Shown here piece by piece: positions 759-26,137 of a stretch of DNA of 64,000 nucleotides. Each line of letters begins with the position of its first letter. Position 1 is the first letter of the stretch. Source of the DNA: Candidatus Bathyarchaeota archaeon (GTDB lineage: Archaea > Thermoproteota > Bathyarchaeia > TCS64); contig JAGTQU010000005.1 in NCBI GenBank assembly GCA_018396695.1, forward strand, positions 421 through 64,420. The letters are read 5' to 3'. The notes below the pieces were generated by a model that was not told the origin of the DNA, made no database searches, and saw only the letters and a program-made list of their open reading frames with translations. A program made the position numbers and the translations under genes.

Positions 759-1772
759 TTATTGAGAGAATCTTCTACTCCGCATCCAGACGGCCATTTC
801 TACTAAACGTTTCACTCTTCGCCTCTTGGCAACCATGATGCAAAAGAAGATGATAACTCCAGGAATAATCATTAAAAGAAGTAAAGTGTAGACTGCATTG
901 AACGCTGGAGTTTCTTTGAGAAATAGGAATGATATTGGAACTGTGCTTCCTTGAACATACCACCAATTACTAGGCGTTATTCCTGTCAGCCACCAAGATA
1001 TGTCGCAAGAGATAGGTATGACAAATAATACTAGGTGGTAAAGCCATAACATAAAACATGTGTCATCATCAGTAAAAGCAAGAGGGGCGATTATGCAACC
1101 AGCATACCAACTTAAGAGAGCAAACATTTCTAATCCTAGATGTGCACCTGGCTGAAACAGGAAGTAAAGTATTCCCAGCGGAGAGATGGAAAAGGGGAGG
1201 AGAGACAGCCAAGGAAAACGACCTCTAATCTCAATATCGGGATTGCTCTTTTGAATTGGGAAAAAATCGTCTGCAAAAAATATGATCGCCATCAGAGATG
1301 CAATAAGAATGAAGCCTTTCAAGGTTTTAATTATTAGAGGGAAATAGCCTAAGACCGGGATCCTGCCTGCGAACTTGCCTACTATATTCTCTTCAGGTAC
1401 GGGTCTCCCGTCGGGGAAAAGATTATTATCGCCTTTAGTGACGAACATCCATCTGTCATCTTCTACGTATTTCTGTATAGCTCTGTGAACAATGTAATCT
1501 TCTGAAGAGCCTCGAGTGAAAACAATAATATCTCCCTCGGGGGCAGGAGAAGCAACTACCTCATTAAAATCGTTAATCTGCTCAACGAATATGAAGTCTC
1601 CAACCCCTAGAGTTGGAACCATACTTTGAGATACTACAACCATAAGAGGATATTCGGTTTTAAAGATCGATCTTAAAATATAAATGCTCCCGAAGGTCAT
1701 TGTGAATAGGATTACTATTAAAACCAGATATCCTATGACTTCTTTTTTCCCTGCCATTCCTTGACCTCGCAT
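759..1772 (-). CDS. signal peptidase I (S26B, archaeal Sec11-type) with long C-terminal polytopic membrane extension
   Basis: N-terminal TM then VVVSQSMVPTLGVGDFIFV (Ser nucleophile box) and conserved GDNN-like box; C-terminal about 170 aa is hydrophobic multi-TM. Confidence 0.7.
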   Translation of the reverse strand: MRGQGMAGKKEVIGYLVLIVILFTMTFGSIYILRSIFKTEYPLMVVVSQSMVPTLGVGDFIFVEQINDFNEVVASPAPEGDIIVFTRGSSEDYIVHRAIQKYVEDDRWMFVTKGDNNLFPDGRPVPEENIVGKFAGRIPVLGYFPLIIKTLKGFILIASLMAIIFFADDFFPIQKSNPDIEIRGRFPWLSLLPFSISPLGILYFLFQPGAHLGLEMFALLSWYAGCIIAPLAFTDDDTCFMLWLYHLVLFVIPISCDISWWLTGITPSNWWYVQGSTVPISFLFLKETPAFNAVYTLLLLMIIPGVIIFFCIMVAKRRRVKRLVEMAVWMRSRRFSQ

Positions 1773-3217: not shown

Positions 3218-3727
3218 GTGTATCTGGCAATGTATTACAGTGGTCAGTCTCTAGCACCGTATGTAGCTTCTCCCGTAAATGTTGTAAAGAGAATGCTTGA
3301 AATCGCTGAAGTGAAACCTGGAGAAACTGTTTATGATCTGGGTTGTGGGGATGGCCGAATCGTAATAATCGCAGCGCAAGAGTTTGGAGCGAAAGGGGTA
3401 GGTGTGGAACTTAATCCTAACTTAGTCAAAGAATCAAGAGCAAAAGTTGAAGAGTTGAAACTTAACGATCGTGTTCAAATCATTCAAGGAGATCTCATGA
3501 AAGTGGATTTGAGTCAAGCGGATGTTGTTACAATGTATCTTACAACGGGTGCGAATGAGAAGATTAGACCAAAGTTGGAAACAGAGTTAAAATCTGGAGC
3601 AAGAGTTGTAACACATGACTTCACAATCCCTAAATGGAATATCCTCCAAGAGATAAGGTTTAGAGACGATTATCGATCGCACACAATATATCTGTATAAC
3701 AAATCTAAATCGATGAAGATTGTCTAA
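3218..3727 (+). CDS. small class I SAM-dependent methyltransferase
   Basis: Motif I VYDLGCGDGRIVIIAA, acidic motif II GVELN, motif III QGDL; true start may be ATG at 3230. Confidence 0.65.
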   Translation: MYLAMYYSGQSLAPYVASPVNVVKRMLEIAEVKPGETVYDLGCGDGRIVIIAAQEFGAKGVGVELNPNLVKESRAKVEELKLNDRVQIIQGDLMKVDLSQADVVTMYLTTGANEKIRPKLETELKSGARVVTHDFTIPKWNILQEIRFRDDYRSHTIYLYNKSKSMKIV

Positions 3728-3844
3728 AATAGATCAATTTCCTTTCTTATATGAATTTAGATCCAAGTTTTTTCTCTGTTTTTTGATCAGCTTAAATAGT
3801 AATAATTTAATGAGTTGTGTTGAAGAGCCCATAAAAATGCATTT

Positions 3845-4276
3845 TTGGCAATAATCGCTAATATTATCTCAGAGGGTACAGCAAAAAAGAATGTGGAAAC
3901 GGATTTGATCCAGATGAAGGGGGCCTATTGTCTCATAGTTCAAGTATCAAAGAGTTCAACGATTAAAATTGGTTCACTCGGGATAATTAATTTTGATCCA
4001 GGATATTATATATATGTTGGATCAGCCATGAATAGTTTAGAGTCGAGAGTTCATAGACACCTTAATACTGCTGAAAAAAAGTTTTGCAAGCTGAGATGGC
4101 ACATCGACTATTTGCTGACGGCGCCAGGAGTTAAGATAATTAGAGTATACGAATTTGTTTCCAAAAATAAGATCGAATGCACTATCGCCTATGTGCTATC
4201 TCAGAGGTATGCGCCAGTATCTAGATTTGGAAGTTCCGATTGCAAATGCGGGGGTCATCTTTTCAAAGTTAAATAA
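3845..4276 (+). CDS. GIY-YIG superfamily protein (archaeal DUF123-like) with C-terminal Cys/His pair
   Basis: GAY...YIYVGSA (GIY/YIG-like), R..RH, KLRWHIDYL motif, C-terminal CKCGGH. Confidence 0.55.
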   Translation: MAIIANIISEGTAKKNVETDLIQMKGAYCLIVQVSKSSTIKIGSLGIINFDPGYYIYVGSAMNSLESRVHRHLNTAEKKFCKLRWHIDYLLTAPGVKIIRVYEFVSKNKIECTIAYVLSQRYAPVSRFGSSDCKCGGHLFKVK

Positions 4277-5521: not shown

Positions 5522-6790
5522 TCATAACTCTAAAGTCTTTCTAATATCTCTCATAGAAGGTTCGACAATTTTTGAGCTATTTATGATGTTTGATTTTATC
5601 CCCGGCAAATCTCCTTCAAAATATCTAATAGTGGAGTCAGGGTCTTTTAGTATATTTCCTGTTAAAACGCAAACAATCTTCTCTCCTTTATCTATAACTC
5701 CAGAATCGAAAAGTCTTTTAGCTCCTGCAACAGAAGCTGCTGAAGCCGGCTCGCAGCCGATGCCGCTTCTATCTACTACAATTTTAGAATCCATGATCTC
5801 TTGGTCAGATACGTGCTCAACTACGCCATTTGTATTTTTTATTGCTGATAACGCCTTTTTCCAGTTGACAGGGTTACCTATCCTTATAGCAGATGCAACC
5901 GTTTTGGCCTCGCTGTTAGGCTCGAGGAGGCTAGAGCCTGTTGACCAGAGCCTGTAGAACGGGTCGGCACATTCAGCCTGTATGGCTGCTAAACGAGGCT
6001 TCTCATCAATGAGGTCTAACTCTTCTAACTCGGTTAAGGCTTTCCCGAATGCAGAGGTATTCCCAAGATTCCCTGCCGGCAAGATTATCCAATCTGGAGG
6101 TTTCCAGTTTAGTTGTTGGATAAGGTCGAAGACTATTGTTTTTTGCCCTTCGATTCGCCAGGGGTTTATCGAGTTCAGTAGATAGATGCCTAGTTCTTCA
6201 GAGGCTTGCTGCACAAGGCTCATTGCGTCGTCAAAGCTTCCTTTAACCTGGATCATGGTTGCTCCGTAAGCGAGCGTTTGAGCGAGTTTTCCATAAGCGA
6301 TCCTTCCTTCTGGAACAAAGACTATACACTTTAAGTCTGCTATGGCTGCATATGAAGCTAGTGAGGACGAGGTATTCCCTGTTGATGCACAAGCCACAAT
6401 ATTAACTCCTAAACGTTTAGCCTCGGAGACGCCTACAGTCATGCCTCTATCCTTGAAGGAGCCTGTTGGATTCTCCCCCTCATGCTTTAAATATAGGTTA
6501 GGCGTGCCTACGAAGCTCGAAATAAGTTTGCTGGTATAAAGATTCGTGTTACCTTCAGGTTTTGTTATAATGTGATTATTATCAAGTCCAGGGTATACTA
6601 ACTCTTTGAATCGCCACACACCGCTCTTTATGATGGGGTTTGGTGAACCCACCCTCTTATCAAATATGTCTCGCCTAATCCCCTCTCTGAACTCGTGTTT
6701 AACTTCGAAGAGTCCCCCGCACTCGCATTTCGTTTTAACCTCTAGAGGATAACTTTTCCCACAATCTATACATCTAAATATTGACGACAT
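5522..6790 (-). CDS. thrC: threonine synthase with N-terminal zinc ribbon
   Basis: CIDCGKSY...CECGG ribbon; PLP-lysine region TGSFKDRG; fold-type II PLP enzyme; 422 aa. Confidence 0.88.
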   Translation of the reverse strand: MSSIFRCIDCGKSYPLEVKTKCECGGLFEVKHEFREGIRRDIFDKRVGSPNPIIKSGVWRFKELVYPGLDNNHIITKPEGNTNLYTSKLISSFVGTPNLYLKHEGENPTGSFKDRGMTVGVSEAKRLGVNIVACASTGNTSSSLASYAAIADLKCIVFVPEGRIAYGKLAQTLAYGATMIQVKGSFDDAMSLVQQASEELGIYLLNSINPWRIEGQKTIVFDLIQQLNWKPPDWIILPAGNLGNTSAFGKALTELEELDLIDEKPRLAAIQAECADPFYRLWSTGSSLLEPNSEAKTVASAIRIGNPVNWKKALSAIKNTNGVVEHVSDQEIMDSKIVVDRSGIGCEPASAASVAGAKRLFDSGVIDKGEKIVCVLTGNILKDPDSTIRYFEGDLPGIKSNIINSSKIVEPSMRDIRKTLEL

Positions 6791-7702
6791 TCAGATCACT
6801 CTAACACCTTCAACGCTGGGTTTAGTGAAATAGGTGCTGCATTTAACGCCAGCTTCTTCGAAAGCTTCAGACATGGCGTTACCAATCTCCTCAAGATCCT
6901 CTCCAACTGCAAAAACCGATGGTCCTCCCCCTGCTATAGAGCACCCCAATGCTCCAGCGTCTAAAGCTTTCTCTTTCACCCGCCAGAAATTAGGGATGAT
7001 CTTAGCTCGGAAAGGCTCTACAAGTTTGTCACATATGCTTCTTCCGAAGAGGGTAGAATCTTTTAAAGCTACGGCCGCAGCCATCCTCGAAGCCTTTCCA
7101 ACATTCAAAACTGCCTCTTTCAGCCTAACGGATTCAGGTAATAGGGATCTCGCAAGCTTGGTTTTAGCCTCGTAGACGATTTCAGGTACTGCGATGACTA
7201 TTCGAATATTTGGAGGCTCCAATCGAACAACATCGTAGTCGAAATCTACTATAACGAAACCTCCTAAAAGAGAGGCGGAGACATTATCTGCATGCGCACT
7301 CCCAGATACCGCCGCCTCTCCTAAAGCAGCTAGTTTAACTAGTTCCCCTTTAGCTAAACCAAGGTTCAGCAGTTTATTAACCGCATACGCCGCTGCAGCA
7401 GCAGAAGCCCCTGAAGAGCCTAGCCCTCGTCCTGGAGGGATGCCTTTAATTATCTCAGCATGGAATCCGTGTGACAAGCCACGGCTTTCATAAATATACT
7501 TAAGAACAGTTCCAGCGCTGTTTCTAATCGCATCGCTTGGAATAGAATCCGCTCCCAGCCCGTTTACACTTATAGAGAGGGTTTTTTCCTTTATTATACT
7601 GAGCTTGAAGAAGTCGCCGATACCGTCAAGTGCTAGTCCAAAGACATCAAATCCTGGTCCAAGATTAGCTATGGAGGCTGGAGCATAAACTTCTATCTGT
7701 TT
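6791..7702 (-). CDS. thrB: homoserine kinase (GHMP kinase)
   Basis: Reading frame continues upstream of the track Met: KQIEVYAPASIANLGPGFDVFGLAL...PPGRGLGSSGASAAA (GHMP motif). No canonical start codon is found in frame before the upstream stop at 7703-7705. Confidence 0.75.
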   Translation of the reverse strand, partial: KQIEVYAPASIANLGPGFDVFGLALDGIGDFFKLSIIKEKTLSISVNGLGADSIPSDAIRNSAGTVLKYIYESRGLSHGFHAEIIKGIPPGRGLGSSGASAAAAAYAVNKLLNLGLAKGELVKLAALGEAAVSGSAHADNVSASLLGGFVIVDFDYDVVRLEPPNIRIVIAVPEIVYEAKTKLARSLLPESVRLKEAVLNVGKASRMAAAVALKDSTLFGRSICDKLVEPFRAKIIPNFWRVKEKALDAGALGCSIAGGGPSVFAVGEDLEEIGNAMSEAFEEAGVKCSTYFTKPSVEGVRVI

Positions 7703-7811
7703 CTAAGTCACCTGGCATTTCCTACACCTAGCCGAAAATATTCAGTTCAGATACTGTTTATAAGCTTTCTGGAAGATGTTAGAATAAGTTAAACCATGAC
7801 GATTTGATCGG

Positions 7812-8312
7812 TTAAGCTTCTTTAGTAGACGATGAGATTACGTCATAAGCAATTTCTGTAGCTATCTCTATAAAGTTTCGACATTTAGTATTCCAGACAT
7901 TGTATTCTCTATACTTCTTCAAGTCTTCTGTTCTTGATAGGTCTAATCCTATTAGATTATTACATTTAGAGTCTCCAAAAGTTTCAACAAAAAGATCGAT
8001 AAGTTGAGATGCATACCAGTATGGTCGTTTTCCATTAGGATGCACTATATGCTGATTTCTCCCAAATCTGAGACCTACCCCCATGATTGCTCCAGAAAGG
8101 GCACCACATATCTCCCCTCTCCTACCTATTCCCGCTCCGAAGCCTGTTGCCATCCGTGGGATAAGATTACTTGAAACACCTAAACATTCAGCTAACGCCA
8201 TTAACACTGATTCGGAACAGAGGAACCCTTCTTCTGCGTGAGTTGCGGCGCTTCGCTTAGCTTCCTCTTTAGACAGTTTCATTTTCGCATCGTTTACGAT
8301 TATTTTATTCAA
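7812..8312 (-). CDS. C_GCAxxG_C_C family redox protein
   Basis: CSESVLMALAECLG and ICGALSGA motifs. Confidence 0.65.
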   Translation of the reverse strand: MNKIIVNDAKMKLSKEEAKRSAATHAEEGFLCSESVLMALAECLGVSSNLIPRMATGFGAGIGRRGEICGALSGAIMGVGLRFGRNQHIVHPNGKRPYWYASQLIDLFVETFGDSKCNNLIGLDLSRTEDLKKYREYNVWNTKCRNFIEIATEIAYDVISSSTKEA

Positions 8313-8337
8313 AGACTTATGAAGATTGCTTTGAAGT

Positions 8338-8607
8338 TTGCCAAAGTTTATATTAAGGGATACCCATGCCTCATGGATAGAATTGGATCAGAAGATTGAA
8401 GTTTCCAAAGCGATCGAAGAGATTAGGCCTCATCTACAAGCCGACGGTGGAGACGTGCAACTGGTCGACGTTATCGATGGCGTTGTTAAAATAAAGCTTA
8501 AGGGAACATGTGCTGGCTGTCCGATGTCTCAGATGACGGTGAAATGGGGCGTAGAGAACTATCTAAAGAAAAAGGTACCTGGAGTAAAGTCCGTAGAGGC
8601 TGTTTAA
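8338..8607 (+). CDS. NifU/Nfu C-terminal domain Fe-S cluster scaffold-like protein
   Basis: ADGGDVQLVDV...KLKGTCAGCPMSQMT. Confidence 0.7.
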   Translation: MPKFILRDTHASWIELDQKIEVSKAIEEIRPHLQADGGDVQLVDVIDGVVKIKLKGTCAGCPMSQMTVKWGVENYLKKKVPGVKSVEAV

Positions 8608-8628
8608 TCCCTTAGGTGTCGCATGTAG

Positions 8629-9099
8629 ATGTCTTTATACGAGGAGTTGGAAAAGGCCAAAAACTATAGTGACATTTTCTCTCTAGTTAAAAAAGCTGTG
8701 AAAAAATCTCTTAAGGAGCATAGGGTAGGTCTCATGCTCTATCTTGGGAATCTTCCTATGAGAGTCGGGGCTTTCCATCCTATTGGGACAAACGATGTGG
8801 TTTTGAACAGACGGTTAATTAACGCTTTAAAATCTGAGGTTAAACAAAAATCCTATCTTTTCTCTATTCTCCTCCACGAGTATCTGCATAGTTTAGGCTA
8901 CCATGATGAAGAGCAGGTTAGAGCTTTAACATACAAGATTTCTGTTGAAAACTTTGGTAGCCAACATCCGGTAGTTGAAGCATCAATAGCTGGACCTTGG
9001 TGCGAATTAACTCAAGAAGACTATGAAGCGATTGAGCAGGATATAGATCTAGAAATGATTAAAGACTTTGAAAAGATTGAAATAGGATATATAATCTAA
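8629..9099 (+). CDS. hypothetical HExxH zinc-metallopeptidase-like protein
   Basis: SILLHEYLHSLGY (HExxH) in a 156-aa protein. Confidence 0.4.
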   Translation: MSLYEELEKAKNYSDIFSLVKKAVKKSLKEHRVGLMLYLGNLPMRVGAFHPIGTNDVVLNRRLINALKSEVKQKSYLFSILLHEYLHSLGYHDEEQVRALTYKISVENFGSQHPVVEASIAGPWCELTQEDYEAIEQDIDLEMIKDFEKIEIGYII

Positions 9100-9304
9100 G
9101 AAACACTATTCTAACTCGCCTTTTTATATTTATAAGAAATCAAAACAGCCTATAATTTCATCTTAATTTTTTAAGAACTTCCTTTTAAACTTAGGAGAGT
9201 TCAATTTGAAGTGTTCAGTCTTAAAATAATTCATTAAAAATTGGCAGTTTTTTGCCACATATTGAAGAAAAATTAAATTATAGAGAGGGGATAGATGAAT
9301 TTTT

Positions 9305-10068
9305 GTGACGGTCTTGGTAAGAGAGGAAATTGAATCGTTCGAGTTTATAGCTGAGACGGAGCGCCTTTTAAAAGGAAACGGGTTATTGCTCTGCACTATG
9401 GGTAAAGATGAAAAACCAAACCTAATGACTATTGGATGGGGTCTAATAGGCACTATGTGGAGACAACCCTTCTTTGCAGTAGCTGTTAGAGCTTCCAGAT
9501 ATACCTATAAACTTATTGAAGAGCATGGTGAGTTTACCGTGTGTCTTCCATCGAATAATATGGAACATGTATTAGATTTCTGCGGATCCAAATAAAAACT
9601 ATTTCATCAGAGAAGCTCATAATATTTTTTAGAGTTTTTTCAAAGCATCTTTTTCGGCGTATACTCCTTTAATTCGCCCGAAGTAAATAGTATGGTAATC
9701 GCCCAAGGGATAAACCTCTTTCTCTAAATCGGCATCAAGTTCCCCAAGTTTAACTTTTACCTTATATGCAACCTTACATTCATAATGAACAGGGCATTCA
9801 GCTACAAAAGGCACTTTAACGTTATAGCTTCTAACAGGAGTAAGAGTTAACTCTTACTCCTGTTAGAAGCTATAACGTTAAAGTGCCTTTTGTAGCTGAA
9901 TGCCCTGTTCATTATGAATGTAAGGTTGCATATAAGGTAAAAGTTAAACTTGGGGAACTTGATGCCGATTTAGAGAAAGAGGTTTATCCCTTGGGCGATT
10001 ACCATACTATTTACTTCGGGCGAATTAAAGGAGTATACGCCGAAAAAGATGCTTTGAAAAAACTCTAA
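9305..10068 (+). pseudogene. flavin reductase-like (FMN-binding split barrel) gene interrupted by a palindromic insertion
   Basis: N-terminal fragment 9305-9595 (NLMTIGWGL...EHGEFTVCLPSNNMEHVLDFCGSK*). C-terminal fragment is in frame from 9844 to 10068 (ELTLTPVRSYNVKVPFVAECPVHYECKV...). An exact reverse-complement copy of the C-terminal fragment lies at 9629-9814. Confidence 0.7.
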
Positions 10069-10111
10069 AAAATATTATGAGCTTCTCTGATGAAATAGTT
10101 TTTATTTGGAT
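9587..10111. repeat. perfect spacer-less palindrome (about 262-bp arms, centre 9848/9849 at GTTAAC)
   Basis: Track ORFs 9629-9814(-) and 9883-10068(+) encode identical 61-aa peptides. Arms checked by eye: 9587 atccaaataaaaactatttcatcag matches the reverse complement of ...ctgatgaaatagtttttatttggat at 10111. Confidence 0.9.
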
Positions 10112-10130
10112 AATGATCTGGTTTAAAAAA

Positions 10131-10135
10131 GGAGG
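10131..10135 (+). promoter_or_regulatory. Shine-Dalgarno-like GGAGG upstream of flavodoxin start
   Basis: aaaaaaggaggaattagATG. Confidence 0.45.
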
Positions 10136-10141
10136 AATTAG

Positions 10142-10615
10142 ATGAAGGTTCTCATAGTATATGATTCAAAAACCGGGAACACTGAGAAAATGGCGAGGGC
10201 TGTGGCTGAAGGTGTATCCTCCGAGAATATTGACGTAGATCTTATAAAGGTTGATGAAGCATCTGTTGAAGTCTTGCCGGAATATGATGGAGTAATCCTC
10301 GGCTCACCTGTTTACTATGGTCAACCTTCAGCGAAGATCAAGGAGTTCATAGACGCTTCAGTCAAGTTTCACGGAAAACTCGATGGGAAAGTAGGAGGAG
10401 CCTTTGCAAGCAGCGGTGGAACTCATTCTGGAGGAGAAACAACCGTATTAGCGCTCTTAGAGGCGCTTTTAGTTCACGGGATGATTGTACAGGGGACTTC
10501 AGGGAGAAACCATTACGGACCTGTTTCAGCAGGGGCTCCCGACGATTCTTCGAAAGAAGCTTGTAAACATTTAGGTAAAAGGGTCGCCAAGCTTGTAAAA
10601 AAGTTAGCTAGCTGA
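10142..10615 (+). CDS. flavodoxin-like FMN protein (WrbA/multimeric flavodoxin family)
   Basis: MKVLIVYDSKTGNTEKMA N-terminus, flavodoxin fold signature. Confidence 0.75.
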   Translation: MKVLIVYDSKTGNTEKMARAVAEGVSSENIDVDLIKVDEASVEVLPEYDGVILGSPVYYGQPSAKIKEFIDASVKFHGKLDGKVGGAFASSGGTHSGGETTVLALLEALLVHGMIVQGTSGRNHYGPVSAGAPDDSSKEACKHLGKRVAKLVKKLAS

Positions 10616-10823
10616 GGCTCAAAATCCAATCTTTTCCAGTTAAAGAATTTCAATCCTTTTATATCTTGTAAACCCTTCACTAATTTTTCTAATTATTAAA
10701 AATCATTATATTTAAAATGTAGAATGCACACAAAGGCAGAGAAACAAACATATAAATATCTAAAAGAGAGGAGAGTGCGTATGTTTTTAAAATGTTAATA
10801 ACTAGAAAAAAATTATCCCTATA

Positions 10824-11807
10824 ATGTTTCAAATTGGAGGCTTATGTTTGAGGGTTGTGGATGATATTTTAAAACTGATCGGGAATACCCCAATGGTTAG
10901 GCTGAAGAATATTCCAAAAAGCACGGATGCAAGTGTTTACGTAAAGCTTGAGTACTTGAATCCGAGTGGAAGCTTAAAGGACAGAATAGCTCTCGAGATG
11001 ATTCGCACAGCTGAGGAAGAAGGCAAGCTTAAACCAGGCTACACCATCATCGAAGCGAGTACTGGAAACACTGGAATTGCTTTGAGTTTTGTAGGTTCTC
11101 ATCTTGGCTACAAAGTTGTAATCTACATGCCGGAAGGGATGACTCAGGATAGAATTAACATAATGAAGAGTTACGGGGCAGAGGTTTACTTGATTAAACC
11201 TGAAGACTTGAAAAGCTCAGAAAAAAGTGTGGCAGGGGCTGAGATTGAGATCCCGACGCGTATGATGTGCCTTGAAAGAGAAAGATCGGATCCAAAAGTT
11301 TGGTGGGCACGGCAATTTAAAAACCCAGCTAACACTAAGGCACACATCAAAACTGGAAAAGAGATTCTTCAACAATTAGATGGGGAGGTTGACGCTTTCG
11401 CAGCATCCATAGGCACAGGCGGCACTCTCTTAGGTATATCCAAGGCTTTGAAAGATGAGCTGCCTAACATCAAAATAATCGGTATAGAACCCGCATCTGC
11501 CAAATATTCTCTTGTCTCAGGTTTTAAGAAAGTCCCTGGAGCAAGTGAAGAAGTTAGTGGAGGAATAGTAGCTGAACTGATAGATAGTGGTTTAGTTGAT
11601 GAGTTTGTTTCTGTGACAAACGATGATGCCATAGATATGACAAATAGACTACTTTTTGAAGAAGGACTTTTCGCAGGAGTATCCGGGGGCGCGAATGTTC
11701 TAGTGGCATATAAATTATCAAAGAAACTGGGAAAAAATAAGAGGATCGCCACTGTTCTGCCTGACAGTAGAGATCGATATTTGACCGAGATGAGATATAC
11801 TACGTGA
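10824..11807 (+). CDS. cysteine synthase / cystathionine beta-synthase family PLP enzyme
   Basis: NPSGSLKDRIA PLP-lysine motif, STGNTGIALS, GIGTGGT glycine loop; real start probably downstream of 10824. Confidence 0.75.
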   Translation: MFQIGGLCLRVVDDILKLIGNTPMVRLKNIPKSTDASVYVKLEYLNPSGSLKDRIALEMIRTAEEEGKLKPGYTIIEASTGNTGIALSFVGSHLGYKVVIYMPEGMTQDRINIMKSYGAEVYLIKPEDLKSSEKSVAGAEIEIPTRMMCLERERSDPKVWWARQFKNPANTKAHIKTGKEILQQLDGEVDAFAASIGTGGTLLGISKALKDELPNIKIIGIEPASAKYSLVSGFKKVPGASEEVSGGIVAELIDSGLVDEFVSVTNDDAIDMTNRLLFEEGLFAGVSGGANVLVAYKLSKKLGKNKRIATVLPDSRDRYLTEMRYTT

Positions 11808-12139
11808 TGTGCCCTATTTTATGGTTGGAAAATTTTCTTCTTTTCATCAATTAATTACTGAATGTTTCTTGGAGAAATCTAGATCCTGAAATTATAGTGT
11901 TTTCTGGTAATATCCAATAATAATCTTTAATTTGACTTTTTAATATTTTAATCAACTTAAATAAAAGGTTGGGAAATTATTAACGTGTCCTCTGACTATA
12001 AGTATTTTGACAAAGCAAAACATATTGTATTAGAATAGAATATAGAGGATTGGTGAAAAGATCGAATCTAAAAATATATTTAAGCATAATGCGTAGCTAT
12101 AGATAACGCTTTCAAAATATTAGTTTTAACAAATTTACT

Positions 12140-12343
12140 TTATACTAGCTGTTCTATATCCTCAAGTTTATCTAATGCAGATTTCTCGACGCCTCTAATT
12201 GGTTTATAGTTGCAAGGGTCTTTGCAATGAATATATATCTTCGTCTCCTTGAACCTATGTGCCAGTTTATTTGCACAACTGAAACATTCACAAGCTGATA
12301 GAATCCCTCTACTGATCCATGCATCGACCTTCTTAGGACTCAT
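12140..12343 (-). CDS. small Cys-rich hypothetical protein
   Basis: 67 aa, CECFSC...HCKDPC, in AT-rich intergenic island. Confidence 0.3.
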   Translation of the reverse strand: MSPKKVDAWISRGILSACECFSCANKLAHRFKETKIYIHCKDPCNYKPIRGVEKSALDKLEDIEQLV

Positions 12344-12584
12344 TCATATCAGAACCTAGTAACTATTATACGATTATAATGTATATTCTTTTTGATTCAT
12401 AATCTCTGAATATTTAAGATAAAAATCTACATATTATCAAAATTTTATATTTTAGAATCAAGAGTCTAAATTTAAGATGCAGAATAAGGGAGTTGGCTTA
12501 AGAGACTTGAAAAAGGCTGTTCGGAAATGTAGTTTTTTATACTCTAATAGCCTTTTTATTCTATAAGCTACAAGGGAAAAACGT

Positions 12585-12866
12585 ATGAGTCCAAGATCAG
12601 TCCTTTATTCCATTCTTGCTGTGTTAACAGGGTTCGCTCTCATAACCTCAGTAAACTGGGTAGGAAACAAAGCAGGAGAGCAACCTACGTTTAGTTTGGA
12701 GCGCCGATTAGATGAATTAACCGTTGAAAGCGACATGATTAAGGATTCCTTTGATCAGAATACCATGCAGAGTTTTTCTGAATGGGAGATAATCTTTGAA
12801 TCTCTTGCTTTAAATCTAATAATCGCTTTTGGGGTCTACTTTATAGCTAAGCGAAGATTTCAGTGA
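12585..12866 (+). CDS. small membrane protein (hypothetical)
   Basis: 93 aa with N- and C-terminal hydrophobic helices. Confidence 0.35.
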   Translation: MSPRSVLYSILAVLTGFALITSVNWVGNKAGEQPTFSLERRLDELTVESDMIKDSFDQNTMQSFSEWEIIFESLALNLIIAFGVYFIAKRRFQ

Positions 12867-12917
12867 AGGCTTAAACAAATGAAAAACCTAAAAAGAAAAA
12901 TGATAGTATCTTAGGGT

Positions 12918-13796
12918 CTATGTTATAACAGATTTTCCATCGAAATCTAACAGTCTTTGACGTTCGTTGTTAACCTCTTGCTGAACATAATCGATCTGTT
13001 CCTTATTGAGGTGACGGAACCTTGCTTGAGCCTTTAGATAATCCTCAATCGGTCGCTGTTTAGGCTTCAAAGTTAATCTAAGAACTCCGTTCTCAACCTC
13101 GTATAGTGGCCAAGCCCATGTTTCAACGCCTAGGCGTACAACTTCTACGCTCTTGGCAGGGTCGAAACGCCATCCAGTGGGGCAAGGCATGACTGTGTGA
13201 AGATACTTGAATCCGCTTATACTTTTTGCTTTAGTGATTTTAGCTTTAAGATCTCTAGGATAAGCAACGGAAATTGTTGCGACATATGGTACTCGATGTT
13301 GAGCTATTATCATCGGGATCCTTTTTTTAGGAGCTTCCTTTCCTTGAGGTGTTGTAGTTGTCCAAGCCCCATAAGGTGTGAGCCCACTCTTTTGGATCCC
13401 TGTGTTCATATATGCTTCATTATCGATGCAAATCTGGATCATGTTCTCATTTCTTTCAGCTGCAGCCGAAATCTTTCCAAAGCTAATATCCCCCGTGGCT
13501 CCGTCTCCAGCAGCCGAGATCACTGTCACATCGTTTCTGCCCTTCGCATTTAATGCTGCAACTATTCCAGTCGCACCATCTGCAGCGAAGGAAAAGTGTA
13601 TACCAAATGTCGGTAGTTTAATGTTTCTGATGGCGCATCCAGCGCATGGTCCATCTCCATATATGATCGAATTAGATCCTATGGCTTCAAGAGCCATGCG
13701 CCAAAACATCGGCCCCCCACAACCTGGGCAGCATGTACTCCCGCCTTGGAAGAGGCTTTTTTCATAGTATTCATCAAATAGCTTGTTTACCTCCAC
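12918..13796 (-). CDS. 2-oxoacid:ferredoxin oxidoreductase beta subunit (TPP-binding)
   Basis: CCPGCGG...GDG TPP motifs; part of G-D-A-B gene order. Confidence 0.85.
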   Translation of the reverse strand: MEVNKLFDEYYEKSLFQGGSTCCPGCGGPMFWRMALEAIGSNSIIYGDGPCAGCAIRNIKLPTFGIHFSFAADGATGIVAALNAKGRNDVTVISAAGDGATGDISFGKISAAAERNENMIQICIDNEAYMNTGIQKSGLTPYGAWTTTTPQGKEAPKKRIPMIIAQHRVPYVATISVAYPRDLKAKITKAKSISGFKYLHTVMPCPTGWRFDPAKSVEVVRLGVETWAWPLYEVENGVLRLTLKPKQRPIEDYLKAQARFRHLNKEQIDYVQQEVNNERQRLLDFDGKSVIT

Positions 13797-14996
13797 TCAC
13801 ATCACCTCTCCTAAATCTTTAAGCTCAACCCAATCGGTTTCGTCTTCTGCCTTCCCTGTTTGATATGCATCGAGGACTTTATCTGCAATATATCTAATCT
13901 GGCGCATTGTCACATCGCTTCCACCTAAGCCTACATGGAAATTCAGGAGGAGAGGTCTATCATCGAGCGAATAGAGTGCCCTTGCGACTTCCATTGCAAC
14001 TATGCCGCTGCCTGAGGCTGAACCGTAACTGGTGTTTCTGTCCACGATTCCTATCACTTTATATTTTTTAGCAAGCTTCCTCAGCTCTTCGGTTGGAAAC
14101 GGTCTAAAGCATCTCATCTTAATTAAACCCACCTTCTTTCCCTCCGCTTGGATCTCGTCGATTACATCCCTTGCGGTTCCAGTCATTGACCCCATCGTCA
14201 TGAAAACCGCTTCTATACCGTCACATGCGTACTCCTCTAAAGCCCCATCATAATATCTGCCAAATATCTCCCCATAGCTTTTATCGACTTCCTCAATGAC
14301 TCCTTTAGCCTTCTCCGTAGCCTTTTGAACCTCATAACGCGCCTTAGCAATATTTTGGGGAAATCCTCGTATAGTCCTGAATTCTCCAGGCATAAGATTG
14401 TACATCTCATGTTTATAAGGAGGCAAATAGTCATCCACCTCTTTCTGGTCTGGAATACTCGTTGGAGTAGCTGTAGCTGAAGCAAAATATCCGTCGTAAC
14501 AAACAGCTACGGGTAAATATACCCTCTTATCTTCCCCGACTTTATAAGCTTGAATAACCGTATCTAGAATCTCCTGACTATTCTCGCAATAAAACTGTAT
14601 CCAGCCAGTATCTCTTTGAAGAAGAGAGTCATTGTGATCTGGTCGTAACCCGCCAATCGGAGCCATAGCTCTATTCACCATGCACATAACTATAGGCAGT
14701 CTCATGCCAGGAGGCATCCATAAAGCCTCCTCCATAAATACAATGCCTTGTGAAGCTGATGCAGTGAACACTCTAGCTCCGGCAGCTGACGCACCTATCG
14801 CTGCTGCCATAGCTGTATGCTCACCTTCAACCTTTATGTACTGTGCTTTCATTTCACCATTTGCGATAAAAGAAGCTATCGTACTTATTAACTCGGTCTG
14901 AGGCGTAATAGGATATGCCGGAACAACTTCTGCTCTAGCAAGTTTGGCACCCCATGCCGCAGCTTCATTTCCTTCAAGCATTCTTATAATGCCCAA
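13797..14996 (-). CDS. 2-oxoacid:ferredoxin oxidoreductase alpha subunit
   Basis: 399 aa, POR/VOR alpha-type sequence; adjacent to beta/delta/gamma subunits. Confidence 0.85.
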   Translation of the reverse strand: MGIIRMLEGNEAAAWGAKLARAEVVPAYPITPQTELISTIASFIANGEMKAQYIKVEGEHTAMAAAIGASAAGARVFTASASQGIVFMEEALWMPPGMRLPIVMCMVNRAMAPIGGLRPDHNDSLLQRDTGWIQFYCENSQEILDTVIQAYKVGEDKRVYLPVAVCYDGYFASATATPTSIPDQKEVDDYLPPYKHEMYNLMPGEFRTIRGFPQNIAKARYEVQKATEKAKGVIEEVDKSYGEIFGRYYDGALEEYACDGIEAVFMTMGSMTGTARDVIDEIQAEGKKVGLIKMRCFRPFPTEELRKLAKKYKVIGIVDRNTSYGSASGSGIVAMEVARALYSLDDRPLLLNFHVGLGGSDVTMRQIRYIADKVLDAYQTGKAEDETDWVELKDLGEVM

Positions 14997-17332: not shown

Positions 17333-18853
17333 TTAAACTTTTTTACAGATTTTTCCTGAAAGCGCATCCTCAATTATTTTTGGGATCTTATCAATAAGAT
17401 CGGTGGGAAGTACATGGTATCCTTTCTCTTTGAAGACTTCATCCCCTGCTACACCATTAATGAATGCTCCTGCAGACGAAGACTCGAAGGGGTCAAACCC
17501 CATTGCCATGAACCCGACCACAATGCCTGATAATACATCTCCAGTACCTCCAACAGTCATTCCAGGATTTCCAGTCCAGTTATATCTTGTACGGTGACCA
17601 TCGCTGATTATGTCAACCTCTCCTTTTAACAAGATGGTTGCATTCATTTTTTCAGCCTCTTTTTGCACTGTTTCACCTCGCTCTCTATAATCTCCTATTA
17701 CCTTTTTTCCCGTGAGTGTTCTAAACTCCTCAGAATGAGGGGTTAAGACTGTGGGTGCCTTGAATTTTCTCACCCTAGTAGCATAGCTCTTTAATGCATC
17801 AGCGTCTATTAGCATTGGAAGGTTTTTTTCATCAACTAAATCTATAAGCGCATTAACCGCCTCGATAGTACCCTCACTAGTACCTAAACCAGGACCCATA
17901 GCTACAGAGTTCACACGATTTAGAAAAGGCTGTAGCTGAGTTAGGTTCTTCATTGTTAATCGACTCCCTTTAAGCTTGACTGTTACAAAGGCTGGAGAAA
18001 ATCCAGCTATTATCGTAGAAGCCGTCTCTGGTGCAGCGACGTATACCAAATCTACACCTGTTGCATATGCTCCCATTCCGGTAAGTGCTGGAGCTCCTGA
18101 GTAAGTTTCGCTTCCGCCTATCACAAGTACGTATCCGAAATCACCTTTATGAGCGTTCTTTGGCCTAGGTTTATTCGTTAGATAAACATCACCAGGACCT
18201 GTGAAGAGTTCAGCTTCTAGAGGTATCCCTATTGGCTTGATTATAACTTCTCCCAAATATTTTTCCGCATTTTTGAAACCGATCTTGTTTTTATGAATCG
18301 TGACTGTCAAATCTGCCTTAAAGCCTTCACCCTTAATATCTCCACTATCAGAATCGACGCCTGTAGGAACATCTATAGCAACTTTGAAGCCTTTAGATCT
18401 ATTCATCATCATTATAGCATTACTGAGAGGAGGCTCTAATGCTCCTTTTAATCCGGTTCCAAGAAGAGCATCAACTATAACATCTGCGTCAAAAGGTTTA
18501 ATGAGGGTGGAGTCTTTCAATTCCTGTATTTCGATGCTAGATCTCATATTTTGAATAATATTCCAGTTGATTTTAGCTTCCTCAGATCTAATATTTGTAG
18601 ATGAACCTACCAAAAACACTTGGACTTTAAATTTTTTAGATAGGTGGCGAGCTGCAACAAACCCGTCTCCACCATTCCCTCCAAGACCACAAATGATAGC
18701 TACTTTCTTACCAACTGGAATACGTTTCTCAACTTCTTCAGCTACCACTCTCCCGGCATTCTCCATTAATTGCAAAGTCGAGACACCCAGGTATACAGCA
18801 TTCATGTCAACTGCCTTGAACTCTTCGGATGTTAGGTATTCGTCCAGGATCAA
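17333..18853 (-). CDS. nnr: bifunctional NAD(P)H-hydrate repair enzyme Nnr (epimerase + ADP-dependent dehydratase)
   Basis: YjeF-N motif GLGGNGGDGFVAARHL and C-terminal dehydratase GDFGYVLVIGGS...GAPALTGMGA. Confidence 0.8.
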   Translation of the reverse strand: MILDEYLTSEEFKAVDMNAVYLGVSTLQLMENAGRVVAEEVEKRIPVGKKVAIICGLGGNGGDGFVAARHLSKKFKVQVFLVGSSTNIRSEEAKINWNIIQNMRSSIEIQELKDSTLIKPFDADVIVDALLGTGLKGALEPPLSNAIMMMNRSKGFKVAIDVPTGVDSDSGDIKGEGFKADLTVTIHKNKIGFKNAEKYLGEVIIKPIGIPLEAELFTGPGDVYLTNKPRPKNAHKGDFGYVLVIGGSETYSGAPALTGMGAYATGVDLVYVAAPETASTIIAGFSPAFVTVKLKGSRLTMKNLTQLQPFLNRVNSVAMGPGLGTSEGTIEAVNALIDLVDEKNLPMLIDADALKSYATRVRKFKAPTVLTPHSEEFRTLTGKKVIGDYRERGETVQKEAEKMNATILLKGEVDIISDGHRTRYNWTGNPGMTVGGTGDVLSGIVVGFMAMGFDPFESSSAGAFINGVAGDEVFKEKGYHVLPTDLIDKIPKIIEDALSGKICKKV

Positions 18854-21072: not shown

Positions 21073-21894
21073 GTGTATAGAATAGTCGAGAAGATTAAGT
21101 TAACGCCGACCGATAAGATGTTGGTTATAGAAGCTCCTGAAGCAGCGCGAAAAGCAAAACCGGGTCAGTTCGCCGTCCTTAGGATAAGCGAGAAGGGAGA
21201 GCGGATCCCCATAACTATTGCAGGAGTCGATCCCGATAAAGGAACTGTTGTAATTGTTTTTGCTGAGGTTGGTAAAACTTCTAAAGATCTTGGGAAACTT
21301 GGTGTTGGAGACTACATACTTAACTTTGCCGCTCCTCTCGGTAATCCCCTAAATATAAAGAATTATGGTACCGTTTTATGTGTCGGAGGGGGCGTATTTG
21401 TAGGCGCTCTTTTATTCTTGATAAAAGCTCTTCGCCAAGCCGGTAACGAAATCGTAACGATCATAGGGGCAAGGAATTCCGAGCATCTAATCTTTTTAGA
21501 CGATGCTGAGAAGTTAAGTGATGAGCTCTACATATCGACTGATGATGGCTCACGTGGTTATAAAGGTCTTGAATTTCTGAAAGAACTCTTGAATAAAAGA
21601 AAATTTGATCATGTTTTTACCATAGGTTCAACCTCTATGCAGAGGCTAGTCTCGGAGCTAACACACCCATATAGTATACCGACAACTGTTAATTTGTTTC
21701 CTATAATGGTCGATGCAACTGGAATGTGTGGGGCATGTAGAGTAATAGTTGGAGGAGCGACAAAGTTTGCTTGTGTCGATGGTCCAGACTTCGATGGTCA
21801 TAAGGTCGATTTTGATCAGCTTATCTCACGTATGAGATTCTATAACCCTCAGGAAAAGATAGCGATGGTCTATCATTATAAGGAGGTGGCTTAA
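21073..21894 (+). CDS. NfnA/SudB-like small subunit (PyrK-like FAD/NAD(P) domain with C-terminal 2Fe-2S)
   Basis: PyrK-like fold, MCGACRV...C cluster, translationally coupled to GltD-like subunit. Confidence 0.75.
   Translation: MYRIVEKIKLTPTDKMLVIEAPEAARKAKPGQFAVLRISEKGERIPITIAGVDPDKGTVVIVFAEVGKTSKDLGKLGVGDYILNFAAPLGNPLNIKNYGTVLCVGGGVFVGALLFLIKALRQAGNEIVTIIGARNSEHLIFLDDAEKLSDELYISTDDGSRGYKGLEFLKELLNKRKFDHVFTIGSTSMQRLVSELTHPYSIPTTVNLFPIMVDATGMCGACRVIVGGATKFACVDGPDFDGHKVDFDQLISRMRFYNPQEKIAMVYHYKEVA
21881..21886 (+). promoter_or_regulatory. Shine-Dalgarno-like AGGAGG before nfnB/gltD-like start
   Basis: aaggaggtggcttaATG. Confidence 0.45.
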
Positions 21895-23744: not shown

Positions 23745-24716
23745 ATGTGCAGCAGTTTATGGACCGAGAAATATCGCCCTCAAACATTGGATGAGATAGT
23801 GAACCAGTCTGAAATAGTGTCTAGAATGAAGAAGTTTGTTAAAGAGCGAAATATACCTCATCTGCTATTCGTTGGCCCTGCAGGCGTGGGGAAAACAACG
23901 ACTATCTTAGCATTATCAAGAGATTTGTTTGGGCCATCGTATAGGAATTTTGTTATGGAGCTTAATGCTAGCGATGAGAGAGGGATCAACGTGATTAGAG
24001 AGAAAGTAAAATCTTTTGCTCAAACTGCTGCTATATCTCCTGAAGTTCCCTTCAAAATTTTAATCATGGATGAGGCTGATAGCTTAACCTCAGCGGCTCA
24101 ACATGCCCTGCGACGAACTATGGAGATCTACACAAAGACATGCCGTTTCTGTCTCATCGGGAACTACTCGGAGAATATTATAGAACCTATTCAGAGCAGA
24201 TGCTCGGTATTCCGCTTCAGCCCTTTAAGCGAACAGGATCTTAAAGGACGTATACGATCTATCTCCATTAAAGAGAATCTTCAACTTTTAGATGAGGGGT
24301 TAGACGCTATATATGAAGCTTCTGCGGGAGATGTGCGAAAGGCAATAAATCTCTTGCAAGCTGCCGCAGCCGTTCAGGGAGGAGTAATAGATGATGTATC
24401 AATCTATAGTGTACTCGGTCAGTTAAACCCTACAAGGATTAGGGAGATGGTAAAACTATGTTTGAAAGGTGACTTCCTTGAAGCCCGGGAAGTGTTACGT
24501 AGCTTACTTATTGAGGAAGGGATAGCTGCTGAAGATATCCTCAAACTCTTATATTTTGAAATTCTTAAAAGCGACATCGCTGAAGAGTGGAAGGTTAAAC
24601 TTTCGGATACTATAGGAGAAGTTGACTATAGGCTTACTCAAGGCTCTAGACCAGAGATCCAGCTCAGCGCTCTTCTCGCAAAACTAACGCTCGCCGGGGA
24701 AGAGATGCATCGATGA
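23745..24716 (+). CDS. rfcS: replication factor C small subunit
   Basis: EKYRPQTLDEIV, Walker A GPAGVGKTT, SRC motif region. Confidence 0.9.
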   Translation: MCSSLWTEKYRPQTLDEIVNQSEIVSRMKKFVKERNIPHLLFVGPAGVGKTTTILALSRDLFGPSYRNFVMELNASDERGINVIREKVKSFAQTAAISPEVPFKILIMDEADSLTSAAQHALRRTMEIYTKTCRFCLIGNYSENIIEPIQSRCSVFRFSPLSEQDLKGRIRSISIKENLQLLDEGLDAIYEASAGDVRKAINLLQAAAAVQGGVIDDVSIYSVLGQLNPTRIREMVKLCLKGDFLEAREVLRSLLIEEGIAAEDILKLLYFEILKSDIAEEWKVKLSDTIGEVDYRLTQGSRPEIQLSALLAKLTLAGEEMHR

Positions 24717-26137
24717 GAAACGAACCAGTATCTTGGACGATAAGGTTCAGACCTAAAAATAAGAAAGAAATAGTTGACAATAAAGAATCGGTTGAAAGGT
24801 TCCTCTCCTGGATGAAATCTTGGGTCAATGGTATTCCTGAAAAACATTCAGTCTTCTTGTATGGTCCTCCAGGCGTCGGAAAAACATCGACAGTTTTAGC
24901 ATTGGCGCGTGACCTAGGATTCGACGTTATCGAAGTGAATGCTAGTGATTACCGTACTAGCAAGAGATTAGAAGAGATAGTAGGCAGATCTATTTCTTTG
25001 AGTCTCACAGTTACGGGTAAGAGGAGAGTCATACTCTTCGATGAGATGGAGGGTATAAGTGGACGTGAGGATGAAGGTGGAATCTCTGAAATTATGAAGA
25101 TTATCAAAGAGAGCAGAATCCCTGTCGTCCTCATTTCAAATAGTATTCAAGAAAATTGGGAAAAATTCTTACCTCTTATATCTCTCTCAGAGTTGATAGA
25201 GTTTAATTCTATACCCTTCAAGGATGTTTTAAACTGGCTGAGAGATGTTTCAACTAAAGTCGGAGTCAAGGTTGAAGAAGAAGCTTTAGAACTGATCGCT
25301 GAAAGGTCTGCAGGGGACTTAAGATCGGCTTTAAACGACCTAGAAACCGTCGCCGGAGGGAGGACTCAAGTAACTCTAGAAGATGTTATAATTCTTGGTG
25401 ATAGAGATAGACAAACCTACACGCATGAAGCCCTTATGAAAATATTTTCTTCTAAGAGTGTTAAGGAAGCCAGACAAGTGATCTCTTCCTCATATATTAA
25501 CTATGATGAACTGTTCGAATGGATATATGAGAATATTCCCTACGTCCTGAATGATCCAAGGGATCTCTCAGAAGCTTTAAACCATCTCGCCTTAGCTGAC
25601 ATTTTTGAAGGTAGAGCTAATAGAACTCAAAATTATACTTTAATAAAATATATGTTCACTTTAATGACCGGGGGAGTTGCCCTTTCAAGGAAGCATTCAG
25701 ATGGAACAGGTCTATATAGACGCTTAGAGAGTAGGCTCTTGAACCTAGGTTTGCCACCAAATTCTTTTAAGATAAGCGATTCGCCTAGAGGGTTATCTGT
25801 CAAGCCTTCAAGATATCTTGGAAATGACTGGAGGAGGATTAACGAAACTATTCGTAAACTTGGTGGATATTGGAGAAAAACCGAAAAGATTTGGTTCCTA
25901 CCTTACTTCAGGAACCCTCAATACCTTCCAAATTTGAAGAGAACATGGTATATTAGACAAGCAAGAGATACTCTGATAGCAAAGATCTCGAAATATTGTC
26001 ATGTTTCAACAAGAGTAGCGTTAGTCGATCTCCTACCTTACCTCAAAATAGTCTTTGAAAAAGATGAGATGATGGCTAGAGAGTTTTCGAGACTGTTTGA
26101 GCTAAATGACAAAGAAGAAAACTACTTAAAATCTTAA
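24713..26137 (+). CDS. rfcL: replication factor C large subunit
   Basis: Walker A GPPGVGKTS, DEMEGI Walker B-like, overlaps rfcS by 4 nt. Confidence 0.85.
   Translation: MRNEPVSWTIRFRPKNKKEIVDNKESVERFLSWMKSWVNGIPEKHSVFLYGPPGVGKTSTVLALARDLGFDVIEVNASDYRTSKRLEEIVGRSISLSLTVTGKRRVILFDEMEGISGREDEGGISEIMKIIKESRIPVVLISNSIQENWEKFLPLISLSELIEFNSIPFKDVLNWLRDVSTKVGVKVEEEALELIAERSAGDLRSALNDLETVAGGRTQVTLEDVIILGDRDRQTYTHEALMKIFSSKSVKEARQVISSSYINYDELFEWIYENIPYVLNDPRDLSEALNHLALADIFEGRANRTQNYTLIKYMFTLMTGGVALSRKHSDGTGLYRRLESRLLNLGLPPNSFKISDSPRGLSVKPSRYLGNDWRRINETIRKLGGYWRKTEKIWFLPYFRNPQYLPNLKRTWYIRQARDTLIAKISKYCHVSTRVALVDLLPYLKIVFEKDEMMAREFSRLFELNDKEENYLKS

Follow-up and report, generated by a model that had tools for sequence, protein, structure and literature searches.

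The window, that is, the whole stretch of 64,000 nucleotides that was analysed, lies on a contig of 79,966 bp from a hot-spring Bathyarchaeia MAG (locus tags KEJ47_, proteins MBS76304xx), and it contains a gene of the flavin reductase family that is split. The truncated N-terminal fragment at 9398..9595 on the forward strand, taken from the ORF list, comprises 65 aa from the ATG used in a sister MAG, or 96 aa when read from the GTG at 9305. It matches Pfam PF01613 (Flavin_Reduct) at positions 7-74 with an E value of 3.5e-7 and 30.9 bits (cut-off 27), is identical to residues 1-65 of the intact sister protein, and ends in ...DFCGSK, followed by a TAA stop codon that is made by the junction. The C-terminal fragment, in frame from 9850 (TLTPVRSYNVKVPF...), matches PF01613 at positions 89-138 with 24.0 bits, which is under the cut-off of 27. 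A continuous Flavin_Reduct domain above the gathering score is found in the intact sister gene and not in the window, where the domain is split.

Downstream of the split gene, a flavodoxin/FMN-reductase-like gene (10142..10615, forward strand; Pfam FMN_red and Flavodoxin_1) is unaffected. This gene was used as the anchor for finding the sister locus, and exactly the same protein is encoded on JAGTQW010000026.1. The wider context is that of ordinary chromosomal housekeeping, with genes at 35165-37492 (+), 24713-26137 (+) and 17333-18853 (-); the housekeeping genes include those for a family B DNA polymerase (775 aa), the large subunit of replication factor C and an NAD(P)H-hydrate repair enzyme (YjeF_N and Carb_kinase).

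At the split lies a perfect inverted repeat, as revealed by a repeat search and a direct reverse-complement test. Its arms at 9586-9848 and 9849-10111 are 263 nt each and 100% complementary with 0 nt between them, which gives a spacer-less palindrome of 526 bp in total. A sequence-only reading of this DNA had described a perfect palindrome without a spacer, which is borne out, although the 525 bp that it gave, with a left arm starting at 9587, places the left boundary one base short. A single strand of the palindrome folds into one 263-bp hairpin of -320.8 kcal/mol, compared with -50 +/- 4.8 for shuffled sequences (z = -56), and its stability is far above chance. In the repeat search of the 64-kb window, no other inverted repeat of at least 30 nt with high identity was found.

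The two arms differ in origin. The right arm (9849..10111, +) is native, being identical to and collinear with the sister locus, and it encodes the flavin reductase's C-terminal part, which is in frame from 9850 and ends in a stop codon at 10066-10068, followed by 43 nt of 3' intergenic DNA, in agreement with the earlier assignment. The left arm (9586..9848, -) is the inverted copy of 9849-10111 that the same reading had taken it to be, 100% complementary to the right arm. Its non-native part (9594-9841, 248 nt) stands in place of 24 native nucleotides, CAGGGAGAGACTTTGATAAGTTTA; in the BLAST comparison, the sister locus L001 matches at 3701-3970 to window positions 9855-9586 in reverse, and L001 3677-3700 is missing from the window. 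The inverted arm also contains a spurious 61-aa ORF (9629..9814, -), an inverted duplicate of the C-terminal fragment that is listed in GenBank as a hypothetical protein, and its translation is identical to that of the ORF at 9883-10068 (+). The same 61-aa sequence is annotated twice in GenBank, both times as hypothetical (MBS7630424.1 and MBS7630425.1; KEJ47_02435 and its neighbour), and these twin database entries are created by the palindrome.

An intact 148-aa Flavin_Reduct gene is present on JAGTQW010000026.1 (GCA_018397005.1), which belongs to the sister MAG from the same study. The match between this contig and the window extends over 3,676 bp on the left side at 100% identity and over 4,774 bp on the right side at 99.98%, and the sister MAG as a whole shares ~99.9% identity with the window over ~37.7 kb. 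Relative to the sister, the window has lost the 24 nt, or 8 codons, that contain the conserved SGRDxDKF motif and has 248 nt of inverted sequence instead; at the junction, GGATCCAAAT is followed by CAGGG in the sister and by AAAAAC in the window. The estimate of about 8-10 missing conserved codons made from the window is thus refined to exactly 8 by the intact allele. The proposal that the N-terminal fragment is joined to the inverted arm also stands, although the join does not lie right after ...DFCG; it is placed after ...DFCGSK, since the codons for Ser and Lys belong to the native gene and fall within an 8-nt microhomology.

The locus is also uninterrupted in two Logan assemblies of unrelated sequencing runs, SRR8371833 (~95% identity) and SRR20820566 (~84%). 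Relatives of the protein are encoded at 21 loci in other genomes, and the 8 orthologues that were aligned (8/8) are all uninterrupted and all keep the SGRDxDKF motif that is deleted in the window. The sequence-only reading had proposed comparison with the orthologous locus as a check, and that comparison returned an intact gene in the ~99.9% identical sister MAG and in two further assemblies. Because the gene is intact in the sister MAG, in the Logan assemblies and in the aligned orthologues, the palindromic state is derived and recent, and the change is predicted to inactivate the gene. Moreover, no difference separates the two arms from each other or from the sister allele and there is no spacer between them; the event was therefore either extremely recent or took place in vitro.

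The symmetry of the sequence, taken alone, would also suit a palindromic element that is functional or mobile, for instance a hairpin-telomere or resolution site, the inverted repeats of a transposon, or an invertible segment present in two orientations. Both arms are made up solely of the 3' part of the gene and the intergenic tail behind it. Three other assemblies carry an ordinary chromosomal locus that is collinear with the flanks, and there is no adjacent transposase or recombinase; neither the ORF list nor the Pfam matches reveal mobile-element genes, a transposase or a recombinase near the palindrome. A mobile element or telomere-like palindrome was rejected on the basis of arm content and flank collinearity, and an element of this general kind is barely conceivable here.

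A comparison of the two alleles resolves the anatomy of the rearrangement. The order in the intact allele is left flank, a (ATCCAAAT), x (24 nt), p (AAGAGTTAACTCTT, 14 nt), B (248 nt), a' (ATTTGGAT) and right flank, and the order in the window is left flank, a, rc(B), p, B, a' and right flank. In the window, a occupies 9586..9593 (+), where it is native to the gene and also forms the first 8 nt of the inverted arm, and its inverted partner a' occupies 10104..10111 (+), the point of the second, or return, switch. The natural 14-nt palindrome p (9842..9855, encoding the codons K-E-L-T-L) is the centre of the large palindrome and the first switch point, and it is already present in the intact sister allele (L001 3701-3714) and in the SRR8371833 strain (L023). 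A sequence built from the sister allele on this two-switch model equals the window from 5918 to 14615 at 8,697 of 8,698 positions, and the sole mismatch is an unrelated SNP at 11034. A simple inversion between ATCCAAAT and ATTTGGAT, assembled from mixed orientations, was rejected because the central B'-p-B junction exists in neither orientation and the 14-nt palindrome is shorter than any k used in the assembly.

Both breakpoints coincide with sequence features that are rare by chance. Only 7 centres with a palindrome half-length of at least 7 are present in the repaired 63.8-kb window, and the large palindrome sits on one of them; within -400/+800 nt, five 8-nt inverted pairs lie across the centre, and the a/a' pair is one of these. 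A random inverted junction would have at least 8 nt of microhomology with P ~2e-4, and the chance probabilities of the two microhomology breakpoints are P ~1e-4 and 2e-4. These estimates exclude random ligation for both microhomologies. Since the breakpoints did not arise by chance, they point to either a polymerase step primed by annealing or an algorithm that merges overlaps. Breakpoints at pre-existing inverted microhomology, here the 8-nt pair and the 14-nt palindrome, are as found for fold-back events in vivo, yet a switch in vitro fits them equally.

In the proposed mechanism, a strand being synthesised leftwards would copy p and then switch to the complementary template, copying B back; this first switch is possible because p is self-complementary. 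After making ATTTGGAT, the strand would return to the original template by re-annealing at ATCCAAAT, which lies 24 nt upstream of the point of departure. The same product would result if a break within x led to fold-back priming and the ends were then rejoined through microhomology. If such switching took place in vitro, it would produce chimeric library molecules at natural palindromes or inverted repeats, and SPAdes could then route the scaffold through the hairpin edge and the junction edge, with the result that a chimeric palindromic sequence is deposited. We infer that the switches took place in the tube rather than in the cell and that the assembler preferred the palindromic path.

The same steps could have taken place in the cell, and the palindrome would then be a real and very recent mutation in the population of one hot-spring pool, with an inactivated flavin reductase. 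It would have formed by a template switch during replication, or by fold-back priming at a double-strand break with microhomology-mediated rejoining, with use of the 14-nt palindrome and the 8-nt pair. Such an origin is possible, although we regard it as rather doubtful. The two-switch model is exact and microhomology primes both junctions, as expected for such an event, and the formation of fold-back inverted duplications at short inverted repeats is an established mechanism (PMC10622511, PMC10766183). The substrate itself also varies among the strains. In the SRR8371833 strain (~95%; L023 ~3660-3970), the outer inverted pair is degraded (ATCCAAGT, ATCTGGAT) and the 14-nt palindrome is kept, and in the SRR20820566 strain (~84%; L024 ~1100-1442), the centre is not palindromic (AAGAGTTGGCTCTT). 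Therefore, the substrate for the rearrangement exists only in the lineage of the window and its sister, and this specificity also favours an event in vivo. Against such an origin, there is zero divergence between the arms, and long spacer-less perfect palindromes are highly unstable or lethal where this has been tested (PMC4245961).

The sister MAG provides a second line of evidence on where the switches occurred. Approximately 37.7 kb of the window was compared with four sister-MAG contigs, which are collinear with it at 99.2-100% identity, and the structural differences between the two are nearly all microhomology chimeras. A 1-nt indel at window position ~16535 is the only ordinary indel in the ~37.7 kb. 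A 62-nt patch that does not align (window 1302-1363) was considered as an inversion and rejected, because the sister scaffold consists of N at these positions.

The tail of one sister contig (L026 1-98) runs from window 18684-18722 (+) to 18569-18500 (-) and then to 15005 onward (+). Its joints show microhomologies of 11 nt (CAACTGGAATA, inverted) and ~13 nt, and sites up to 3.5 kb apart are joined within less than one read length. Similar junctions are found at the edges of two gaps. At L025 13225-13235, beside the N run at 13236-13286 (window ~1302-1363), a 14-mer equals the inverted window sequence 2375-2388, ~1 kb away, and at the N run of L026 3810-3827 (window ~18730), a 16-mer equals window 21806-21821, ~3 kb away. 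Chimeras on contig tips can hardly be population alleles and are best taken as read-level artefacts, and such tips appear to be routine in the assemblies of this study. As the tip chimeras are technical, molecules of this type must have occurred in these libraries.

Additionally, JAGTQW010000054.1 of the sister MAG (L026 6508-6659) has an internal insertion of 76 nt in a gene for a PyrK-like Fe-S subunit. The gene is intact in the window (21073-21894) and frameshifted in the sister, where no gene is called. The insertion consists of a 59-nt direct duplication (window 21409-21467) and an inverted 26-nt piece (21616-21591), and its path follows the + strand to 21467, the - strand from 21616 to 21591, and then returns to 21409 via a 9-nt microhomology, CTTTTATTC. 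This path makes it a second product of double template switching. Chimeric junctions of the same type from the same pipeline are thus present, all of them in the sister MAG and none in the window's own assembly, where the palindrome is the sole structural anomaly over the ~37.7 kb compared.

These junctions bear on both origins. Since the same junction class is necessarily technical at the sister contig tips, it argues against an event in vivo. If the palindrome and the 76-nt insertion were both real, two ~99.9% identical populations would each have had to fix a rare, gene-disrupting and strand-inverting double switch within 38 kb, almost without ordinary indels. On the other hand, no further anomaly marks the window contig in the comparison with the sister over this distance, which speaks against an artefact and for an event in the cell.

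The provenance of the data narrows the ways in which an artefact could have formed. Qi et al. 2021 (PMC8407382) reported 35 MAGs from hot-spring sediments of Tibet and Yunnan, in an accession series that includes the window's contig. Within this set, the window may belong to the Family-1.3 QZM bins (GC ~41%, N50 72 kb). The pipeline used Illumina HiSeq 4000 reads, assembly of each sample with metaSPAdes 3.9.0 (k = 21 to 127) and binning with MetaBAT, after which reads were recruited to the bins with BBMap and reassembled by SPAdes with the --careful option (PMC8407382). The wet-lab protocol cited there comprises PowerSoil extraction, 350-bp inserts and 2x150 reads at ~30 Gbp per sample (PMC6053391). 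Neither whole-genome amplification nor MDA is mentioned in the methods text of PMC8407382 or PMC6053391; on the methods text of these two papers alone, which describes no strand-displacing amplification, a chimera formed by MDA was set aside. That no amplification is reported counts against an artefact and on the side of an event in vivo.

With 8 and 14 nt, neither microhomology reaches the minimum k of 21, and reads or contigs that contained the junctions must therefore have existed. At k = 21, the outer junction requires 12 novel k-mers and the centre 3 canonical novel k-mers. A pure de Bruijn graph error was rejected for this reason, with both repeats below the smallest k and novel junction k-mers required. 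In SPAdes, the contigs of each k feed the next k, and weak support at a small k could be carried up to k = 127. The earlier suggestion of a foldback chimera from amplification or assembly is upheld in that a chimera remains the leading explanation, with two refinements: the libraries have no reported amplification, and an error of the graph alone is excluded.

A purely computational join with no chimeric reads, made by a scaffolder, a gap-closer or an overlap merge through the 8-nt and 14-nt overlaps, would leave short overlaps at both junctions, as are found here. The deposited sequences are scaffolds, the sister contains runs of N, and an earlier pipeline of the same group used SOAP GapCloser after SPAdes. 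However, the Bathyarchaeia paper (PMC8407382) does not mention GapCloser, the a' end lies inside continuous sequence and provides no free contig end for tip-joining, normal read pairs would be wrongly oriented for a link from A to the inverted B, and every k used exceeds the overlaps of 8 nt and 14 nt. With the a' end internal and GapCloser appearing only in the group's earlier paper, an origin by tip-joining or by GapCloser was judged unlikely, and a computational join of any sort is very improbable.

We regard it as probable that the palindrome is an artefact of chimeric reads and a SPAdes hairpin rather than native genome architecture. The authors of SPAdes described two types of chimeric connection, the "chimeric loop" and the "double-strand hairpin" (rnaSPAdes paper, PMC6736328), and the preparation of Illumina libraries yields recurrent chimeric reads that are centred on natural palindromes or inverted repeats (PMC10908179). 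The window palindrome and the 76-nt insertion of the sister match the hairpin and the loop types, respectively. The exact adjacent reverse complement without spacer or divergence is as found in hairpin artefacts, as is the uninterrupted sequence in independent assemblies of close relatives, here the sister MAG and the two Logan assemblies. In the chromosome of E. coli, a perfect palindrome of 460 bp is lethal when SbcCD is present (PMC4245961). The sequence-only reading had ranked an artefact above a real inverted duplication, and this ranking gains circumstantial support from the sister chimeras, the SPAdes hairpin artefact and the lethality in E. coli. Mre11-Rad50, the homologue of SbcCD, is widespread in archaea.

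Searches for the palindromic allele elsewhere gave no match. The truncated ORFs of 65 aa and 96 aa are absent from a collection of 15 billion proteins, in which the 61-aa ORF occurs only from this record. Exact protein look-ups of gene positions likewise returned nothing for these three ORFs, the 156-aa neighbour, a 327-aa PALP protein or RFC of the window. The left flank has 0 exact DNA matches in GTDB representatives and JGI metagenomes, which are collections without this strain, and the palindrome centre has 0 exact DNA matches in JGI metagenomes, from which the strain itself is absent. That no other assembly shows the palindrome (in GTDB representatives, JGI metagenomes and the protein collection) counts against an event in vivo, and the lack of an independent sighting is weak evidence; the sister MAG aside, those collections do not contain the strain. 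To our knowledge, there is no description of a natural archaeal population in which a spacer-less palindrome of 526 bp is fixed.

Several observations count against the artefact. Library chimeras are normally of low frequency (PMC10908179), and the true path through the 24 nt should win in the assembly graph unless local coverage fell or the path was lost. The scaffold of 80 kb instead crosses both junctions and lacks the native 24-nt segment, which is what a dominant allele in vivo would give. Furthermore, the two junctions form one coherent product, which arises more naturally from a single-molecule event that is copied many times, as by cell division.

A comparison with known systems reveals likenesses and differences in each case. 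The window palindrome resembles the SPAdes "double-strand hairpin", and the 76-nt duplication of the sister resembles the companion "chimeric loop" (PMC6736328). However, the hairpin type comes from RNA-seq and single-cell MDA data, and the present case from a bulk metagenome reassembled in isolate mode; moreover, the second junction (a/a') returns the path to the chromosome, and the palindrome lies within a scaffold of 80 kb instead of at the end of a contig. The library chimeras of the PDSM model, which arise in standard sonication or enzymatic Illumina libraries, similarly consist of a strand and its inverted complement nucleated at short natural palindromes or inverted repeats of at least ~8 bp (PMC10908179). 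Those chimeras are soft-clipped reads of low allele frequency with short-range partners, whereas the outer pair here is 286 nt apart in the intact allele and the product is the consensus.

In the study by Lasken and Stockwell 2007 (PMC1855051), more than 85% of the MDA (phi29) chimeras were inverted sequences with an intervening deletion, and more than 70% were primed at 2-21 nt of complementarity. The geometry and microhomology of the window palindrome are similar; however, MDA chimeras have one junction each, the window structure has two, and MDA is unreported for these samples. Fold-back inversions and quasi-palindrome template switching in vivo likewise involve short natural inverted repeats that nucleate an inverted duplication (PMC10622511, PMC10766183), and the two-switch geometry here amounts to the conversion of a quasi-palindrome to a perfect palindrome. 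The in vivo cases from yeast, human and E. coli differ in that they usually have a spacer, or dicentric, triplicated or short (tens of nt) products.

If the palindrome is an artefact, as we consider probable, the public MAG record (KEJ47_) holds a false pseudogene and two spurious 61-aa "hypothetical proteins", and the sister MAG holds a false frameshift and chimeric contig ends. Such chimeras can skew pseudogene counts, inferences of "genome reduction" and protein databases. A signature for screening would be a zero-spacer perfect palindrome on a natural short palindrome, combined with a return junction at microhomology and an intact sister allele.

Only tentatively do we consider the palindrome as a genuine recent allele that dominates one Tibetan hot-spring population of a Bathyarchaeon, tolerated after a double template switch of the replisome or of break repair. 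Were this true, long perfect palindromes would be far more stable in this thermophilic archaeon than in bacteria, and short Okazaki fragments, high temperature and perhaps relaxed or positively supercoiled DNA are the traits of the archaeon that may be named beside such tolerance. The locus would then be a rare natural case of the formation of a large palindrome by double template switching in an archaeon, and would provide a way to study palindrome tolerance beyond bacteria and eukaryotes.
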